Assembly (NCBI GenBank): GCA_964643545.1
Contig: CAZXTE010000004.1
Location: 39,869-103,868, forward strand
Reading direction: 5' to 3'
Length of the DNA: 64,000 nt
Source: an uncultured Candidatus Saccharibacteria bacterium
GTDB taxonomy: Bacteria > Patescibacteriota > Saccharimonadia > Saccharimonadales > AWTP1-31
The notes under the pieces are model-generated. The model saw only the letters and a list, made by a program, of their open reading frames with translations. It had not been told where the DNA came from and searched no databases. Shown in pieces: positions 3-33,854 of this stretch (position 1 is the stretch's first letter; each line of letters begins with the position of its first letter). The position numbers and the translations under genes were made by a program.

Positions 3-185
3 GAACGTTTAGTGCAGGCGCAACATGAGCTGACCGATAATGACGCAGTATGGTTTGCGCACAATTTGGCCAAGAAACTTTTGAATGAAGCTGTCCCGCG
101 GCTGCGTGAGGCTGACGTTAAGAAATCTCTCGTTGGCGTTCGGCAGGCGCTGCGTGACCTAGGAGCGTTGCATGATAAGCAGTGA
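3..185 (+). CDS. C-terminal fragment of an unidentified protein (5' end outside window)
   Basis: Frame 3 is open from the window edge to TGA at 183-185 (...ALRDLGALHDKQ*). It overlaps the gatB start by 14 nt. I recognise no motif. Confidence 0.3.
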   Translation, partial: ERLVQAQHELTDNDAVWFAHNLAKKLLNEAVPRLREADVKKSLVGVRQALRDLGALHDKQ

Positions 186-15744: not shown

Positions 15745-15758
15745 AATAGGTAGTTATG

Positions 15759-15782
15759 TCCGGCCAGCAGGTCGGATTTTTT
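15759..15782 (+). terminator. Intrinsic-terminator-like hairpin inside the nusA 5' leader
   Basis: TCCGGCC-agca-GGTCGGA (7 bp, one G-U) followed by six T residues. It sits between the putative promoter and the nusA SD. It is strand-specific: the T-run is only on the plus strand. Confidence 0.6.
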
Positions 15783-15809
15783 CATATAAAGAACAAAGGA
15801 GAAGTCAAC

Positions 15810-16970
15810 ATGGAGCTAGATATTAAAAGCCTTGCAGTCGCTGTCCGTGCAATTGCAGAGGAAAAAAACCTACCCGAAGAAACTGTCCAGGAAATTGTTG
15901 AGCAGGCTCTTGCAGCCGCTTATAAACGAGATTTTGGCGATAGAGAACAGGAAGTTCGTGTCAATATGAACATCAATTCAGGAGATATTGATGTGTATAT
16001 ATCCAAGGAGGTCGTCGAGAAGGTTGGTGACCCACACTTTGAAATCAGCCTGACCGAGGCACAAGCTATTCGTAAAAATGTCGTTATTGGGGACATGGTT
16101 GAGATTCACCAAAAGGCAGACAACTTTGGACGTGTTGCAGCCCAGACGGCAAAACAGGTCATTTTGCAGCGTCTCCGCGAAGTTGAGCGTGAAATCATTA
16201 TGGCTGAGTTTGATGACAAAATTGGCACCATCATCAATGGTATCGTTTCTCGTGTCGAGGGAATGCTTGTGCGTTTTGATCTTGGTAAGGCGCAGGGCAT
16301 TATGCCAAAAAGTGAGCAAATCCAGGGTGAACGCTATTACCCTGGCCAGCGCCTAAAAGTACTTTTGAAAGATGTTGAGCGCGGACCACGAGGGCCTCAA
16401 CTGGTGTTGAGCCGGGGCAGTGGAGCATTTATTGAGTTTTTGTTTCGATCCGAAGTGCCAGAAATGGAAAATGGCGCAGTTGAGATCAAGACAATAGCGC
16501 GCGAAGCTGGTGTGCGAACTAAGTTAGCTGTTTCCAGCACCGTTCCAGGTGTTGACCCTGTCGGAACGTTTGTCGGTGGTCATGGCACCCGCGTTAACGC
16601 AGTTATGGGTGAAATCGGTGAACAGGAAAAAATTGACATAGTTGTATGGGATAAGGATCCTGCTACATTCATAATTAATGCATTGAGCCCAACGAAAGTC
16701 GCAAAGGTTAAGCTGTATGAGGCTGAAAAAAAGGCGGAAGTGATTGTTCCCGAAGATCAGCAGAGTATTGCTATAGGCAAAGCAGGCCAAAACGTTCGTC
16801 TGGCAAGCAAATTGACTGGGTACGATATTGATATCATGCCAGAGGTTGTTGCTGTCAAAGAAGAAGTAAAGCCCGCTGCACCAAAGCAGCCAAATGTTGT
16901 TCCTAAGCTTAAGAAAAAGGAGCAATTGGAAAGCTCGCTGCTTGAGGCGATTGAAGAGCACGGCGAATAG
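15810..16970 (+). CDS. nusA: Transcription termination/antitermination factor NusA
   Basis: MELDIKSLAVAVRAIAEEKNLPEE start with AAAGGAG SD 8 nt upstream. S1 and tandem KH regions (IAIGKAGQNVRLASKLTG). Confidence 0.93.
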   Translation: MELDIKSLAVAVRAIAEEKNLPEETVQEIVEQALAAAYKRDFGDREQEVRVNMNINSGDIDVYISKEVVEKVGDPHFEISLTEAQAIRKNVVIGDMVEIHQKADNFGRVAAQTAKQVILQRLREVEREIIMAEFDDKIGTIINGIVSRVEGMLVRFDLGKAQGIMPKSEQIQGERYYPGQRLKVLLKDVERGPRGPQLVLSRGSGAFIEFLFRSEVPEMENGAVEIKTIAREAGVRTKLAVSSTVPGVDPVGTFVGGHGTRVNAVMGEIGEQEKIDIVVWDKDPATFIINALSPTKVAKVKLYEAEKKAEVIVPEDQQSIAIGKAGQNVRLASKLTGYDIDIMPEVVAVKEEVKPAAPKQPNVVPKLKKKEQLESSLLEAIEEHGE

Positions 16971-16976
16971 ACCAAA

Positions 16977-17003
16977 CTAGCACTCTTGACTGACGAGTGC
17001 TAA
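16977..17003 (+). promoter_or_regulatory. CIRCE-type inverted repeat (HrcA operator) overlapping the clpC promoter
   Basis: CTAGCACTC-ttgactgac-GAGTGCTAA against consensus TTAGCACTC-N9-GAGTGCTAA. The spacer begins with TTGACT, and TATTAT follows at 17008-17013. Confidence 0.8.
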
Positions 17004-17046
17004 CTGGTATTATGGTAGTAGTGTATAAAACACCAGAAGAACTACT

Positions 17047-19515
17047 ATGAATAACTCACCAGACTTTCAAGAATTTTTGAACCACCTAACTGAGAATGCG
17101 CTCAATAGTTTGAAGCATGCAGACGGTATCGCTCGCAGTTTCGGGAGCGCTTATATTGGCACAGAGCACTTATTGCTTGGCGTGTTAGCTCAGGAGCCTA
17201 GTATGGGCGCGAAAATGCTAGAAGATGCTGGTGTTACGTTGGAGCGCGCTCGGCTAGCGCTGAATCTAACACCGAAGACAATGGTGATAAATATGGGTGC
17301 GAAAGGCCTGAGTGAAACTGCGAAGCTCACATTAAAGATGGCCTATGAGGTTGCGCAAGACTATTCACAGGATTTTTGTGGAACGGAACACATTGTGTAC
17401 AGCATTTTGACTCAGAAGAATGCCCGAGCGACGATTCTGCTACGGGATATGAATATAGATGTAGAGAACTTAACCAATCAAGTAGAGCAGTTTTTGAATA
17501 GACAGCAAGCAAGCGATGGATCTAGCAGTACGCGACGACGTGGGAAGAAACAGCGCAAGACGGCACTTGATTTCTTCGGGACAGATTTAACGGCCCAGGC
17601 ACGTGATCAAAAACTTGATCCTGTAGTGGGGAGAGAGCCACAAATTCGTAGGCTTATCACCATTCTCAATCGACGCACCAAGAATAACCCAGTATTGATT
17701 GGTGACCCAGGTGTTGGTAAAACGGCGATTGTTGAAGGACTTGCGCAGCGCATTATCTCGGAAGATGTCCCCGATAGTCTGCTTGATAAGCGTATTGTCA
17801 TGCTTGATCTAGCGGGTATGATCGCTGGTACAAAATACCGCGGTGAATTTGAAGAACGACTCAAAAAGGTTATGAGCGAACTAGAGAACGATCGTCACAC
17901 CATTATTTTTATCGACGAGATGCATTTAATTGTTGGTGCAGGTGCAGCAGAAGGAGCAATGGATGCGGGAAACATCTTGAAGCCTGCCCTTGCACGTGGC
18001 AAGATCCAGGTTATTGGGGCAACGACAACTGACGAATATACAAAGCACATTGAAAAAGATGCAGCACTAGAGCGTAGGTTCCAGCCAATTTTGGTTCCTG
18101 AAGCAACAGATGGAGAGACCCTGGCAATACTAAAAGGACTCCGTAAACATTATGAGAAATTCCATCATGTCACTGTCAGTGACGAGGTACTAGAAGATAC
18201 GGTCCGACTTAGTAGCCGTTATATCAACGATCGATTCATGCCAGACAAAGCGATTGACTTACTTGATGAGACTGCGGCGCATCTTCGTGTTGATAAGGGC
18301 AGGACATCACCCGAAGTTCGAAGTCTTCAGAAAGAATTAAAGCTTGTTCAGTCAAAAATTGATGAGGCTGTAGATAATGAGAACTATGAGAGTGCCGCTA
18401 AGCACAAAACACGTGCCAGCCAGATAGAGAAGGAACTGAAAGCGCTGCAAAGCTCTGGAAAAGTGGCAAATAAGCTTGTTATGCACAGCGACGATGTTGC
18501 TGAAGTTGTTGCGCGTTGGACAGGCGTGCCTGTGCAGAAAGTTATTCGAAGCGAAGCAAAGTACCTGCTAAATTTAGAAAAGACGATCGGCAAGCATATT
18601 GTTGGTCAGGATGAGGCAGTAACGGCCGTAGCGAAAGCAATTAGGCGTAGTCGCTCTGGGATTAGCAACGAGCGACGACCAATCGGTTCGTTTGTATTCC
18701 TTGGCCCAACGGGTGTCGGCAAAACCGAGTTGGCTCGTGTTTTGGCTCGAGAATTCTTTGGCAGCAAAGATGCACTTATCAAAATTGACATGAGTGAGTT
18801 TAGCGAACGTCACACGACGTCGCGTCTCGTTGGCGCTCCAGCAGGATATGTTGGTTACGATGAAGGTGGGCAGCTTACAGACAAAATTCGTAGGCAACCA
18901 TATAGTCTTGTGTTGTTTGACGAGATTGAAAAAGCGCATCCAGAGGTTTTTAACATCTTACTGCAAATACTTGAAGATGGTGTGCTTACAGATGCTAAGG
19001 GTCGACAGATTGATTTTTCCAACACCATTATTATTATGACGAGCAATGTTGGTGCAGAGAAGCTGCAACAAGAGGCAGTCCTAGGGTTCCAGGCAACGTC
19101 TAAAGCCGATCAAAAAGACCTAGATCAACTACACAGTCGGAATAAGGATAAAGTACAGGGCGAATTAAAAAAACTTATGCGTCCAGAATTGCTTAATAGG
19201 ATTGATAAGGTTGTGGTCTTCCGTGCATTAACCAAAAGGGATGCACTCCATATTCTTGATCTACAGATCGCCGAGTTACGAGAACGGCTCATTAAGCATG
19301 GCCTTGGCCTGGAGGTTGACGCAAAAGCCAAGAAACATCTACTACAGCAAGGTTACGATTCGCATAATGGTGTGCGACCTATGCGTCGTCTGTTGCAAGA
19401 CACTGTCGAAGATCATATTGCGCTGTCGCTTCTTGATAAGCTGTATGGTAAGGGCGATATTGTACAAATAGGCGTCCGAGACAAGGATCTTACGTACTCG
19501 TTAGCACAAGAGTAA
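17047..19515 (+). CDS. clpC: ATP-dependent Clp protease ATP-binding subunit ClpC (class I AAA+)
   Basis: 822 aa. Double Clp_N repeat, two Walker A sites ([16 protein letters not shown]), UVR-like linker ([23 protein letters not shown]), ClpB_D2-small C-terminus. Confidence 0.93.
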
Positions 19516-19532
19516 TAGTTTATACTACACAC

Positions 19533-20507
19533 ATGACTCGAAAGAATCGCTCCGCACTGTTTGGTGGCGCAGTATCTTGTTTGATAATTGCGGGCAGCGT
19601 ATTCATGTTCTTCCAAAGGCAGGCCTTGTTAGACTGGTTTGCACTTAGAAATTATTCAGCACCCACACAGGTAGAAAGTTTGGCGCTACAGACGACAATG
19701 GATGCTTATGGGAAAAAAATATTCTATGTTAACCGACCGCAAGTACAGGATAAGGCTCAATTTTATGCAAGTTGTAATGAGAACGAAAAGACGGTTGTAT
19801 TAGGGTGTTACAAAAGTAACGAAGGTATATTTTTGTTGCAGGTTACCGATGCTCGACTCAAAGGGGTGGAGGAGGTCACAGCAGCACATGAAATGTTGCA
19901 TGCAGGCTATGAGCGCCTTGGCGGAACAGAAAAAGCTGACGTGCGGCGTATGGTGCTTGCTGCTTATGACCAGCTTGTTGACCCCGGTATTAGGGAAAAG
20001 ATTGATCTATATAAAGCTGCGAACGCAGATATACCAAACGAGCTTCATTCAATCTTAGGTACTGAAGTCGAAGACTTGCCTGCAGGATTAGAGCAGTATT
20101 ACCGTAAATACTTCACTAATCGCAAGCGTGTCGTAACTTTCGCGAACACCTACAAGGCTGAATTCCAAAAAAGAAAAGACACACTTAATGATTACAATGC
20201 GAAATTAGACAATTTGCAGCGCGAAATCGAAAGCAACAACAGCGTGCTTGATGGGCAAATAGGCGTACTGGAGAGTGAGCAGAAGCGCCTCAGTAGTCTT
20301 CGTGCATCTGGAGATATTGCAACATACAATGCAAGTGTAAACCCATACAATCAGAAAGTTAGCACCTATAACGCACTTGTTAGCAAAACAAGAGCCATGA
20401 TTGATACATACAAGGCGCTTCTCGAACAGCGTAATCAAGTGGCCGAGGAGGCACAAGAATTAACACGCGCATTGGATAGTCGAATATTCACTCGGGAACA
20501 ATTGTAG
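19533..20507 (+). CDS. Hypothetical membrane-anchored protein with HExxH motif and C-terminal coiled coil
   Basis: N-terminal TM helix (GGAVSCLIIAGSVFMFF). AAHEMLHAGYE is a candidate zinc-protease motif. Heptad-like C-terminal third. TATACT-N6-ATG start context. Confidence 0.5.
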   Translation: MTRKNRSALFGGAVSCLIIAGSVFMFFQRQALLDWFALRNYSAPTQVESLALQTTMDAYGKKIFYVNRPQVQDKAQFYASCNENEKTVVLGCYKSNEGIFLLQVTDARLKGVEEVTAAHEMLHAGYERLGGTEKADVRRMVLAAYDQLVDPGIREKIDLYKAANADIPNELHSILGTEVEDLPAGLEQYYRKYFTNRKRVVTFANTYKAEFQKRKDTLNDYNAKLDNLQREIESNNSVLDGQIGVLESEQKRLSSLRASGDIATYNASVNPYNQKVSTYNALVSKTRAMIDTYKALLEQRNQVAEEAQELTRALDSRIFTREQL

Positions 20508-20528: not shown

Positions 20529-21878
20529 ATGGGGAAACAGAATGTTGAGTTTGCATGCACGAGCTGTGGTGCCAAAAGCAGTACCTGGTCAGGACGGTGT
20601 CATGTGTGTGGTGAATGGAACACCCTACAAGAGCAAACGCCGCTCGTATCTGTAAGAACAGGCAAGGGAAGAGCTATAAGTCTATCAACTCAGAATGTGC
20701 AGGGGGCAATAAAAAGCGATAAAGTGCCTCGCTTACAGACCAATGTTACAGAAGTTGACGTAGTGCTTGGCGGGGGGTTCGTGCCCGGGAGCATAAGTTT
20801 GTTTGCCGGCCAGCCCGGTATCGGCAAGAGTACGCTGTTGCTCCAGCTCGCAGATGCTGTCGCGCATAATCATTCTGTATTGTATGTCAGTGGCGAGGAA
20901 TCAGTTCATCAGGTGGCCCTACGTGCGGAACGGCTGAAAACTTCGTCTGCAAAACTACAGCTTGCAACAGCCTCGTCTGCCGACGATATTGCGCGCACTA
21001 TTTTATCGGGGGACTATAGTCTTGTGGTTGTTGACTCCATTCAGACGGTTAGCGTGGATGCAGTTGCATCGGCGCCTGGAACAGTGAGCCAAATCACAAA
21101 CAGTACCCACATTCTTGGTGAAGCAGCGAAAGCCAGCAACACTGCCCTAGTGCTTGTGGGCCATGTTACCAAGGAAGGCTCTATAGCTGGCCCGAAAGTA
21201 CTCGAGCACGTTGTAGACGTTGTTATGCAGCTTGAAGGTGATCGTTATGGTGGGTTTAAAGTGCTCCGGGGTGTCAAAAATAGATACGGATCAACTAACG
21301 AAACTGGCATTTTTGAAATGCACGATAACGGTTTGCAGCCAGTGGCAAATCCTTCCGCTGCATTGCTCGCAGAGCGGCAAGTGACTGATGGCTCTGTTGT
21401 CCTGGCGACGATCGAAGGAAGCCGACCCCTTCTCGTTGAGGTGCAGGCATTGGTGAATAAAACAAGCTATGGCTACCCAAAACGAGCAGCAAGCGGTATT
21501 GACCTTAATAGAGTTAATCTACTGGTGGCCATGCTAGAGCGTAGAACAAAATTAAATCTATCGGATCAAGATATATACATCAATATAGTAGGTGGCATTC
21601 GAATTAGCGAACCGGCTGCAGATTTAGCAGTTTGCATGGCCATTGCCTCGGCCAGTAAAGGACTACAGCTAAAAAAGAACGCCGCTGTCTTTGGCGAGGT
21701 AGGGCTCTCTGGCGAGATTCGTCATGTGCCATTTATAGAAAAGCGTGTAGCAGAAGCACGTAAGCTCGGTTTCAGCGGGGCGATAGGCCCTGTACAAAGG
21801 TCCGGGAAGAAACTTGCCGGTATGTACGGTGTTGCAGATATCCGCTCTGCACTCAATCAATTCCTAGAGAAAGACTAA
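20529..21878 (+). CDS. radA: DNA repair protein RadA/Sms
   Basis: C4 zinc finger (CTSCGAKSSTWSGRCHVCGEWNT), Walker A GQPGIGKST, KNRYGS motif, Lon-protease-like C-domain. Confidence 0.95.
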   Translation: MGKQNVEFACTSCGAKSSTWSGRCHVCGEWNTLQEQTPLVSVRTGKGRAISLSTQNVQGAIKSDKVPRLQTNVTEVDVVLGGGFVPGSISLFAGQPGIGKSTLLLQLADAVAHNHSVLYVSGEESVHQVALRAERLKTSSAKLQLATASSADDIARTILSGDYSLVVVDSIQTVSVDAVASAPGTVSQITNSTHILGEAAKASNTALVLVGHVTKEGSIAGPKVLEHVVDVVMQLEGDRYGGFKVLRGVKNRYGSTNETGIFEMHDNGLQPVANPSAALLAERQVTDGSVVLATIEGSRPLLVEVQALVNKTSYGYPKRAASGIDLNRVNLLVAMLERRTKLNLSDQDIYINIVGGIRISEPAADLAVCMAIASASKGLQLKKNAAVFGEVGLSGEIRHVPFIEKRVAEARKLGFSGAIGPVQRSGKKLAGMYGVADIRSALNQFLEKD

Positions 21879-31916: not shown

Positions 31917-33200
31917 ATGCATATTACACTTACAAAAAACACACCAACGAGCGTAACTATTGGCGTCGTGGCAGACGACGATACGTTAAAGAGCATCAAA
32001 ACCGCTGTTCTACGCAAACTTAACACCCCTGACTTAAAGGTGCCAGGTTTTCGAGCCGGGAAAATTCCTTTGGAAATGGTTGAAAAGCATGTTAATCCTG
32101 AACTATTACAAACAGAGTTTATCGATACGTTACTTAATCACGCGTACGCGCAGGCCATTACAAAAGAACAACTCCGCACGGTTGGCCAGCCAGAAGTGAA
32201 TCTTAAAAAATTTGTACCGTTTTCAACCGCTGAATTTGATATAAAAACAGATGTTATTGGCGAAGTCACGTTGCCGGATTACGCAAAGATTAAATTAGCA
32301 AAGCAGAAGGCAGTTGTTGAGCAGTCAGAGGTAAAAGATGTAATTGTATCTTTGCAACGCCGCTTGGCTACAAAAACTGATGTTTCCCGGGCTGCAAAAG
32401 ACGGGGATGAAGTTTGGATTGATTTCAAGGGTGTTGATGAAAAGGGTGCACCTGTCGGAGGAGCAGACGGAACAGATTATCCGCTGCTGCTTGGAAGCAA
32501 CACTTTCATCCCTGGTTTTGAGCCCGAGCTATTAGGTATACAGCCAACAGAGTCGAAGTCATTTACTATTCCTTTTCCAAAGGACTACGGCGTGCGTTCA
32601 CTACAAGGGAAGCGTGTGACGTTCACTGTCACGTGTAAAAAGGTGCAGGAAGTTGTGCTGCCAAAACCTAATGACGAGTTTGCATCTAAGGCCGGGCCAT
32701 TTAAGACCCTGGCTGAACTGAAATCAGACATAAAAAAACAGCTAACTATAGAGAAGCAACGAGAACTTGATGCAAATTATCAGAACGAGCTCATTCGAGA
32801 GATAGCTGCAAAAAGCAGTGTCGCAATTCCTGACACCGTTATCGATCAACAAGTTATCGATGCAGAGAATCAGGAGAAGCAAAATCTTATTAATCGCGGC
32901 CAAACCTGGCAGGAACACTTAGCTGAAGAAAAGCTAACAGAAGAAGAGCATCGTAAAAAGAATCGTCCAGATGCAGAAATGCAAGTAAAAACTGGCGTTG
33001 TTCTTGGTGCTATTGGTGACAAAGAAAAGGTTGTAGTTACGCCGGAAGAAATTGAAATTAGGATTCAGCTATTGAAGGGTCAATATAATGATCCTGGCAT
33101 GCAAGCGGAACTCGACAAACCAGACGCTCGGCAAGATATTGCATCTCGGATTCGTATCGAAAAAATCATTGATGTGCTAGAGAAAAAGATCAAAGCCTGA
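31917..33200 (+). CDS. tig: Trigger factor
   Basis: 427 aa. Ribosome-binding motif GFRAGKIP, FKBP-type PPIase core (FIPGFEPELLG), helical C-domain. Confidence 0.92.
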   Translation: MHITLTKNTPTSVTIGVVADDDTLKSIKTAVLRKLNTPDLKVPGFRAGKIPLEMVEKHVNPELLQTEFIDTLLNHAYAQAITKEQLRTVGQPEVNLKKFVPFSTAEFDIKTDVIGEVTLPDYAKIKLAKQKAVVEQSEVKDVIVSLQRRLATKTDVSRAAKDGDEVWIDFKGVDEKGAPVGGADGTDYPLLLGSNTFIPGFEPELLGIQPTESKSFTIPFPKDYGVRSLQGKRVTFTVTCKKVQEVVLPKPNDEFASKAGPFKTLAELKSDIKKQLTIEKQRELDANYQNELIREIAAKSSVAIPDTVIDQQVIDAENQEKQNLINRGQTWQEHLAEEKLTEEEHRKKNRPDAEMQVKTGVVLGAIGDKEKVVVTPEEIEIRIQLLKGQYNDPGMQAELDKPDARQDIASRIRIEKIIDVLEKKIKA

Positions 33201-33227
33201 CTAGCACTCTTGACATGTGAGTGCCAG
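33201..33227 (+). promoter_or_regulatory. Second CIRCE-type inverted repeat overlapping the clpP promoter
   Basis: CTAGCACTC-ttgacatgt-GAGTGCCAG (15/18 arm positions). The spacer starts with TTGACA. TACCAT at 33234-33239 is 6 nt from the clpP ATG. Confidence 0.7.
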
Positions 33228-33245
33228 TGAAGGTACCATATTTCT

Positions 33246-33854
33246 ATGAACAAGACACACAACTCAGTACTTATACCTACAGTCATAGAGAGTGACGGGC
33301 GCATAGAACGAGCCTATGACATATATAGCCGTTTATTGAAGGATCGTATTATTTTTCTTGGTACAGATGTCAACGAGCACACGGCCAATCTTGTAGTGGC
33401 GCAGCTCTTGTTCTTGCAAGCAGAAGACCCAAAGAAGGACATTTACTTCTACATCAACAGTCCTGGCGGTAGCGTTTATGACGCGCTTGCGATTTACGAC
33501 ACGATGCAGTATGTTGCCAACGATATCCAGACAGTCGGTATAGGCGTGCAGGCATCAGCAGCCGCTTTTTTGCTCAGCTCTGGGACTAAAGGCAAGCGAA
33601 TTATCTTGCCAAATTCAACGGTCATGATTCACCAACCAAGTAGTGGGACCAGGGGTAAAGTAACAGATATGGAAATCGATTTGAAAGAATCTCTTCGGAT
33701 TAAGCAGCGCCTCAGTGACATCATGGCAAAAAATACTGGTCAAACAGTAAAAAAGATTCAATCTGACATGGAACGTGATTACTGGATGACTGCTGAAGAA
33801 GCAAAAAGGTATGGCGTTGTAGACAAGGTCATAAAAAGCCTCAAACAAATATAA
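33246..33854 (+). CDS. clpP: ATP-dependent Clp protease proteolytic subunit
   Basis: 202 aa. Ser-His-Asp triad contexts are present ([31 protein letters not shown]). Confidence 0.95.

Follow-up and report, generated by a model that had tools for sequence, protein, structure and literature searches.

The 27-bp inverted repeat that lies between nusA and clpC is, as judged from sequence comparison, very probably a true CIRCE operator, the binding site of an HrcA-family repressor, set into the core promoter of clpC and matched by a twin at clpP. Throughout this text, the window is the whole stretch of DNA that was analysed, 64 kb in length. The features of the clpC locus are as follows:

15756 to 16970: nusA, the gene upstream of clpC (domain search).
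16977 to 17003, forward strand: CIRCE-type operator, CTAGCACTC-ttgactgac-GAGTGCTAA, with one mismatch, kept in relatives.
16986 to 16991, forward strand: -35 hexamer TTGACT, inside the 9-nt CIRCE spacer (promoter scan).
17005 to 17013, forward strand: extended -10 element TGgTATTAT, 16 nt past the -35 hexamer and 4 nt past the right CIRCE arm (promoter scan).
17047 to 19515, forward strand: gene for a clpC-type Hsp100 ATPase of 822 aa, downstream of the operator (domain search).
19533 to 20507, forward strand: open reading frame of 324 aa, starting 17 nt past clpC.
20529 to 21878, forward strand: radA/sms, starting 21 nt past the 324-aa frame (domain search).

The intergenic region between nusA and clpC is 76 nt long, and the operator begins 6 nt past the nusA stop codon. 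A CIRCE inverted repeat with 17 of 18 arm positions and a 9-nt spacer had been described here in an earlier note made from the sequence alone, and the consensus search returned the same element: at 16977-17003, 17 of the 18 arm positions agree with the consensus TTAGCACTC-N9-GAGTGCTAA (one mismatch), and the spacer is exactly 9 nt. The note had also taken the TTGACT of the spacer for a -35 hexamer, followed by TATTAT 16 nt further on. The promoter scan arrived at this promoter as well (10 of 12 consensus matches for TTGACT-16 nt-TATTAT), placed the -10 hexamer at 17008-17013 and added a TG ahead of it. The clpC leader in the window measures approximately 26 nt and shows no obvious Shine-Dalgarno sequence.

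Regarding the product of the gene downstream, the domains found in the Hsp100 protein of the window are two copies of Clp_N, two AAA+ modules, a UVR middle motif and ClpB_D2-small. An LGF tripeptide occupies residues 679-681 and is presumed to be the ClpP-docking tripeptide of the D2 loop type ([LIV]-G-[FL]). The protein scores under the equivalog cut-offs for both ClpB and ClpA and, together with the UVR-type domains and the LGF tripeptide, this assigns it to the ClpC type. The 324-aa frame at 19533-20507 has no significant match in Pfam or NCBIfam, only weak ones of the coiled-coil type; its close spacing suggests that it is probably co-transcribed with clpC, and this transcription unit possibly ends with radA.

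A search of the whole window with the CIRCE consensus revealed a second site, which is absent from the earlier note. It lies between tig and clpP, and the features of that locus are as follows:

31917 to 33200: tig (trigger factor), upstream of clpP.
33201 to 33227, forward strand: second CIRCE-type operator, CTAGCACTC-ttgacatgt-GAGTGCCAG (consensus search; lineage variants recur).
33210 to 33239, forward strand: clpP promoter, consisting of TTGACA (in the CIRCE spacer), 18 nt and TACCAT (promoter scan).
33246 to 33854, forward strand: clpP, 202 aa (CLP_protease, 3e-78; NF001368, 300 bits, above the cut-off).

At 33201-33227, 15 of the 18 arm positions agree with the CIRCE consensus around a 9-nt spacer, and the three mismatches all fall on outer arm positions. 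The operator follows the tig stop codon without a gap, and 18 nt separate its end from clpP. Because the -10 element ends only 6 nt ahead of the ATG, the clpP mRNA is probably leaderless. The arm variants CTAGCACTC and GAGTGCCAG/GAGTGCCAA recur in sites of the lineage. According to the promoter scan, the operators of clpC and clpP each overlap the -35 hexamer and the spacer of a sigma-70-like promoter; the same operator-promoter build is thus common to the two Clp genes, and nothing else in the 64-kb window has it. The clpP site is the strongest support within the window for the reading as an HrcA operator. The terminator scan flagged a 5-bp hairpin, GTGCCAGTGAAGGTAC plus CATATTTCTA, at 33221-33236 of the window (forward strand), which overlaps the right CIRCE arm and the -10 element of clpP; as its T tail is weak, it is probably a chance call.

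All DNA-level relatives of the window (approximately 67-74% identity) are MAGs of Saccharibacteria/Saccharimonadales, and the arrangements nusA-clpC...radA and tig-clpP-rpoB are common to the window and its Saccharibacteria relatives; the window is accordingly assigned to a Saccharibacterium (Patescibacteria/CPR). Searches for identical proteins gave no match for ClpC and, for ClpP, two Logan contigs of 6.6 kb whose sequence equals that of the window. In one Saccharibacterium (L098:2292-5334, reverse strand), clpP is found directly downstream of clpC under a single CIRCE promoter, and hence the tig-clpP arrangement is not universal in the phylum. The clpP gene of L098 has no CIRCE of its own; it was considered as a counter-example and ruled out, since a CIRCE-controlled clpC is its immediate upstream neighbour.

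The conservation of the clpC arrangement was assessed on metagenome loci that were retrieved by the ClpC protein alone (a conserved peptide drove the scan, and most of the 80 loci were distant). All four close ClpC relatives (59-78% identity) carry a CIRCE with 0-2 mismatches, located 64-93 nt upstream of the ClpC match, whereas among the distant ClpC loci (43-49% identity), which serve as an outgroup control, a site with four or fewer mismatches was present in only two of 74. The arrangement reported in the earlier note is therefore kept in every one of the four relatives fetched without reference to the motif. In these four loci (L123-L126), a TTG-type -35 hexamer is again found within the spacer, and a -10 element of the form (TGn)TAnnnT comes 4-6 nt past the operator. 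In L125, a +2 shift of the -35 hexamer in the spacer is matched by 2 additional nt in the gap before the -10 element, so that the promoter spacing of 16 nt is kept. One of the distant loci (L197, a metagenome contig, ClpC 43% identity) has a CIRCE with a single mismatch approximately 173 nt upstream of ClpC. In a Fervidobacterium MAG (Thermotogota; L008:4675-4697), a promoter-embedded CIRCE with TTGACA-17 nt-TAAGAT precedes a ClpC-like open reading frame. A putative CIRCE before a ClpC-like gene thus also occurs outside the CPR.

One genome per GTDB species was scanned with the query TAGCACTCTTGACNNNNGAGTGC, which represents CIRCE with the -35 element (TTGAC) in its spacer. At least 120 stretches in the GTDB species genomes match the pattern, compared with approximately four expected from base counts, and the great majority of the matches listed come from Saccharibacteria or other Patescibacteria. 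Among the matches listed (128 sites), the first open reading frame downstream is ClpC-like at 29 sites, HrcA-like at 29 and DnaK at 28; the further downstream frames comprise ClpP (12), Hsp20-like proteins (8) and a few GroES and GroEL. As the scan was selected for the motif, these gene counts tell where the motif occurs and not how often each gene carries a CIRCE; the only motif-blind sets are the four metagenome clpC relatives and nine hrcA sites outside the pattern. CIRCE also stands before groES-groEL in the Saccharibacterium L056 and in another Patescibacterium, L106. Whether groES and dnaK bear the same operator had been raised in the earlier note, and they do in relatives of the same phylum (dnaK in 28 loci, groES in L056 and L106). 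Upstream of the genes neighbouring the Clp genes, no CIRCE was found in relatives (nusA 0/16, radA 0/10, tig 0/9); the repeat is accordingly not scattered over unrelated sites.

The search pattern did not include the -10 element. Under a criterion of at least four of six matching positions, with A2 and T6 required, a -10 hexamer lies 15-19 nt past the spacer TTGAC in 100 of the 101 CPR sites listed, whereas the same test at eight shifted offsets was positive for 10-21 of the 101 CPR sites. In many hrcA, clpC and clpP promoters the start codon is found 19-25 nt past the operator and approximately 6-10 nt past the -10 element. These short distances imply leaderless or near-leaderless mRNAs, and clpP of the window (33234-33248) fits with them. 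Just downstream of the -10 element, a second CIRCE-like repeat is present in 18 of the 27 Saccharibacteria dnaK promoters among the matches listed (L013, L016, L031, L040, L083 and L113 are among these double-repeat loci). No such second repeat was seen at the clp promoters listed (clpC 0/29, clpP 0/12). The presence of a second repeat at dnaK and its absence at clpC and clpP suggest that dnaK may be repressed more tightly than the clp genes.

No hrcA, groES/EL or dnaK gene is encoded in the 64-kb window. An HrcA-family protein is present in the lineage, its own gene being preceded by the same operator, and we infer that the present genome also has an hrcA gene. In the CPR, the HrcA-like proteins comprise approximately 228-245 aa, compared with approximately 340 aa for HrcA of B. 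subtilis (short hrcA loci: L063:1343-2092, L074:2911-3688, L099:857-1609 and approximately 25 other CPR loci). The proteins of approximately 235 aa match the Pfam HrcA C-terminal domain (3e-18) and HrcA_DNA-bdg (1e-5). The match to TIGR00331 (hrcA) has an E-value of 1.5e-53 in two stretches and a score of 182.6 bits, just below the cut-off of 197.2 bits. Relative to HrcA of Streptococcus (344-358 aa), approximately 100 internal residues are absent, in several blocks, whereas the winged helix-turn-helix (wHTH) region and the C-terminal end are kept. The structure of T. maritima HrcA (PDB 1STZ) matches HrcA of the lineage at 2.7e-18, with good alignment of the wHTH region. Taken together, the matches in Pfam, NCBIfam and PDB settle that these proteins belong to the HrcA family. 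Being approximately 100 residues shorter and under the TIGR00331 cut-off, the lineage HrcA may differ in biochemical behaviour from characterised HrcAs. Two records with titles naming other groups, L034 (Acidobacteriota) and L052 (Gammaproteobacteria), contain short CPR-type hrcA genes with CIRCE promoters; the L034 protein shares 60-61% identity with HrcA of Saccharibacteria, and both records may be mis-binned contigs of Patescibacteria.

Regarding the genes for these proteins, CIRCE precedes all 33 of the CPR hrcA genes with enough upstream DNA, pattern matches included. For the hrcA genes in loci that had been fetched for other reasons, a CIRCE outside the search pattern was found in nine of nine. 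This distribution bears on the view that the repeat is a mere look-alike of CIRCE which is bound by another regulator, while the short HrcA-like protein does not control the clp genes. Such a view could draw on the truncation of the lineage HrcA relative to characterised HrcAs and on its score just under the curated equivalog cut-off. However, 17 of the 18 positions are those of the pan-bacterial consensus, the identical operator is placed before hrcA in 33 of 33 CPR cases and also before dnaK and groES, and the wHTH region aligns well with that of T. maritima HrcA. With a near-perfect consensus and the classical pattern of HrcA autoregulation, control by another regulator is very unlikely.

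The two regulators classically associated with clpC were considered separately. The tandem heptad recognised by CtsR (RGTCAAANANRGTCAAA, i.e., A/GGTCAAA-NAN-A/GGTCAAA) gave no match with up to two mismatches in the whole window, which agrees with the earlier statement that no tandem CtsR box is visible at clpC. In the Firmicute-like clpC...radA neighbourhood, which had been described as retained, nusA, clpC and radA are all present; ctsR-mcsA-mcsB are not upstream of clpC in the window, where the gene is nusA. The swap of regulators suggested in the earlier note would presuppose that CtsR control was the ancestral state. ClgR-type palindromes have the form CGC-N5-GCG (WCGCYNANRGCGW). For this form, the window contains 14 matches compared with 11.4 expected, and none of them lies within 16971-17046 or 33201-33245. 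Control by CtsR or ClgR was set aside on the basis of these box searches in the window and of the lack of ctsR-mcsAB upstream of clpC.

It is similarly improbable that the repeats act at the RNA level, as 3' stem-loops (stabilisers or terminators) of nusA and tig, and that their resemblance to CIRCE is incidental. The two repeats do begin 0-6 nt past the upstream stop codon, and the RNA hairpins fold at -15.3 and -16.8 kcal/mol (z approximately -2.7). However, neither hairpin is followed by a T-run, the terminator scan calls neither CIRCE stem, and there is no Rfam match at the site. It is the arm sequences that are conserved, not just their ability to pair, and the element tracks the downstream gene (clpC, clpP, hrcA, dnaK or hsp20) whatever lies upstream, with a correctly spaced -10 element following in all but one of the 101 cases listed. 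An intrinsic terminator was rejected on these grounds (a hairpin without a T-run, and conservation at the sequence level that tracks the downstream gene).

Within the 64-kb window, two CIRCE matches with three or fewer mismatches were observed, compared with 0.03 expected from 100 dinucleotide-preserving shuffles, none of which reached two matches. The two sites have one and three mismatches and the next-best sites of the window 5-6; since all other sites in the window have at least five, the two stand apart from the background. The reading as a palindrome arisen by chance, or as a dispersed repeat devoid of a regulatory role, has nothing in its favour other than how often short palindromes generally occur in intergenic DNA, and it is effectively refuted by the position of both matches before Clp genes, by the lack of further copies in 64 kb and by the retention of the site between species with only approximately 70% nucleotide identity in coding regions.

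The most likely mechanism is as follows. At clpC, the left arm abuts the -35 hexamer, which itself lies in the operator spacer, the right arm fills the promoter spacer, and the -10 element follows, starting 4 nt past the operator; operator and core promoter are in effect one object. An HrcA dimer bound to both arms would cover the -35 hexamer and the promoter spacer, and from this geometry it would be expected to keep RNA polymerase off. In the GroEL-titration model, HrcA needs GroEL for its activity and is inactive once unfolded protein titrates the chaperones. By analogy, misfolded proteins would titrate the chaperones and HrcA would release the DNA, upon which clpC (probably with the two genes downstream) and clpP would be transcribed together with dnaK, groES, hsp20 and hrcA. 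We infer that HrcA binds here, that its binding represses and that stress relieves the repression. HrcA/CIRCE thus appears, from the distribution of predicted operators, to form a unified proteostasis regulon in the lineage that would comprise the ClpCP protease as well as the chaperones. In one expression comparison in TM7x, clpP and the Hsp100 gene (annotated as clpB) rise together, which is weakly consistent with shared control.

The system closest at hand for comparison is HrcA/CIRCE of B. subtilis, which acts on dnaK and groESL and shares with the lineage the same consensus and a repressor family with the same wHTH. The lineage also agrees with the class I regulon of B. subtilis in the autoregulation of hrcA and in having dnaK and groES as members. 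In B. subtilis, the CIRCE operator is situated at the transcription start or downstream of it, whereas here the -35 hexamer is inside the operator spacer; the lineage HrcA also has approximately 235 aa and not approximately 340 aa. In Bacillus, the clp genes belong to CtsR, whose regulon is separate from that of HrcA (PMC6305308), whereas clpC and clpP are CIRCE targets here. In streptococci and staphylococci, where CtsR and HrcA act in a dual scheme, a clp protease gene with a CIRCE is likewise on record: clpP of S. salivarius has a CIRCE operator according to Chastanet & Msadek 2003, as cited in PMC6305308. The difference is that CtsR boxes occur there as well, whereas neither a CtsR box nor ctsR is found next to clpC here.

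A precedent is offered by the Mollicutes, which resemble the lineage in being genome-reduced, in having HrcA as the main stress regulator and in the extension of CIRCE to genes for AAA+ chaperones and proteases; their HrcA controls the dnaK operon as well as clpB and lon (PMC5138195). The targets there are clpB and lon, whereas those found here, in the phylum Patescibacteria, are clpP and the gene for a ClpC-type ATPase that has a ClpP-docking loop. Oenococcus oeni, which has kept CtsR and lost HrcA/CIRCE, also uses one repressor for chaperone and clp genes (PMC6305308). It is, however, the mirror image of the Saccharibacteria: CtsR serves both gene sets there, and HrcA/CIRCE here. As groESL has been described as the one invariant member of the HrcA regulon (PMC545781), plasticity of that regulon is to be expected. 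Full-text literature searches returned no paper that links HrcA or CIRCE with Saccharibacteria or Patescibacteria, so that control of clpC and clpP by CIRCE in this phylum appears to be undescribed within the literature searched.

From its sequence features, the arrangement is to be classified as an ordinary operator, embedded in the promoter, that is placed at unusual targets in a phylum which has received little study. It extends a known system in a sensible way and is not a new kind of system; it leaves the understanding of how HrcA/CIRCE works unchanged, and its mechanism is unsurprising. A more far-reaching proposal, which we hold to be about evenly balanced between right and wrong, is that the miniaturised HrcA of approximately 235 aa is the single proteostasis regulator across Saccharibacteria and probably the wider Patescibacteria. 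Devoid of the internal segment found in canonical HrcAs, it would control dnaK, groESL, hsp20 and the whole of ClpCP through promoter-fused operators with the -35 hexamer in the CIRCE spacer, often on leaderless mRNAs, and would replace the schemes of two or three regulators known from other bacteria, in which HrcA is combined with CtsR, ClgR or sigma32.

The locus and its relatives give a clearly defined regulon together with its operator. They also give a picture of the promoters of the lineage (TTGACA, a spacer of 16-18 nt and TAnnnT, with frequent leaderless starts) and an instance of reduced genomes consolidating their regulation, in parallel with the Mollicutes and as a mirror image of Oenococcus. 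Saccharibacteria are now open to genetic manipulation, and the compact operator-promoter of 40 nt is a candidate stress-inducible expression element for them. The finding is thus of use for the understanding and engineering of CPR bacteria.
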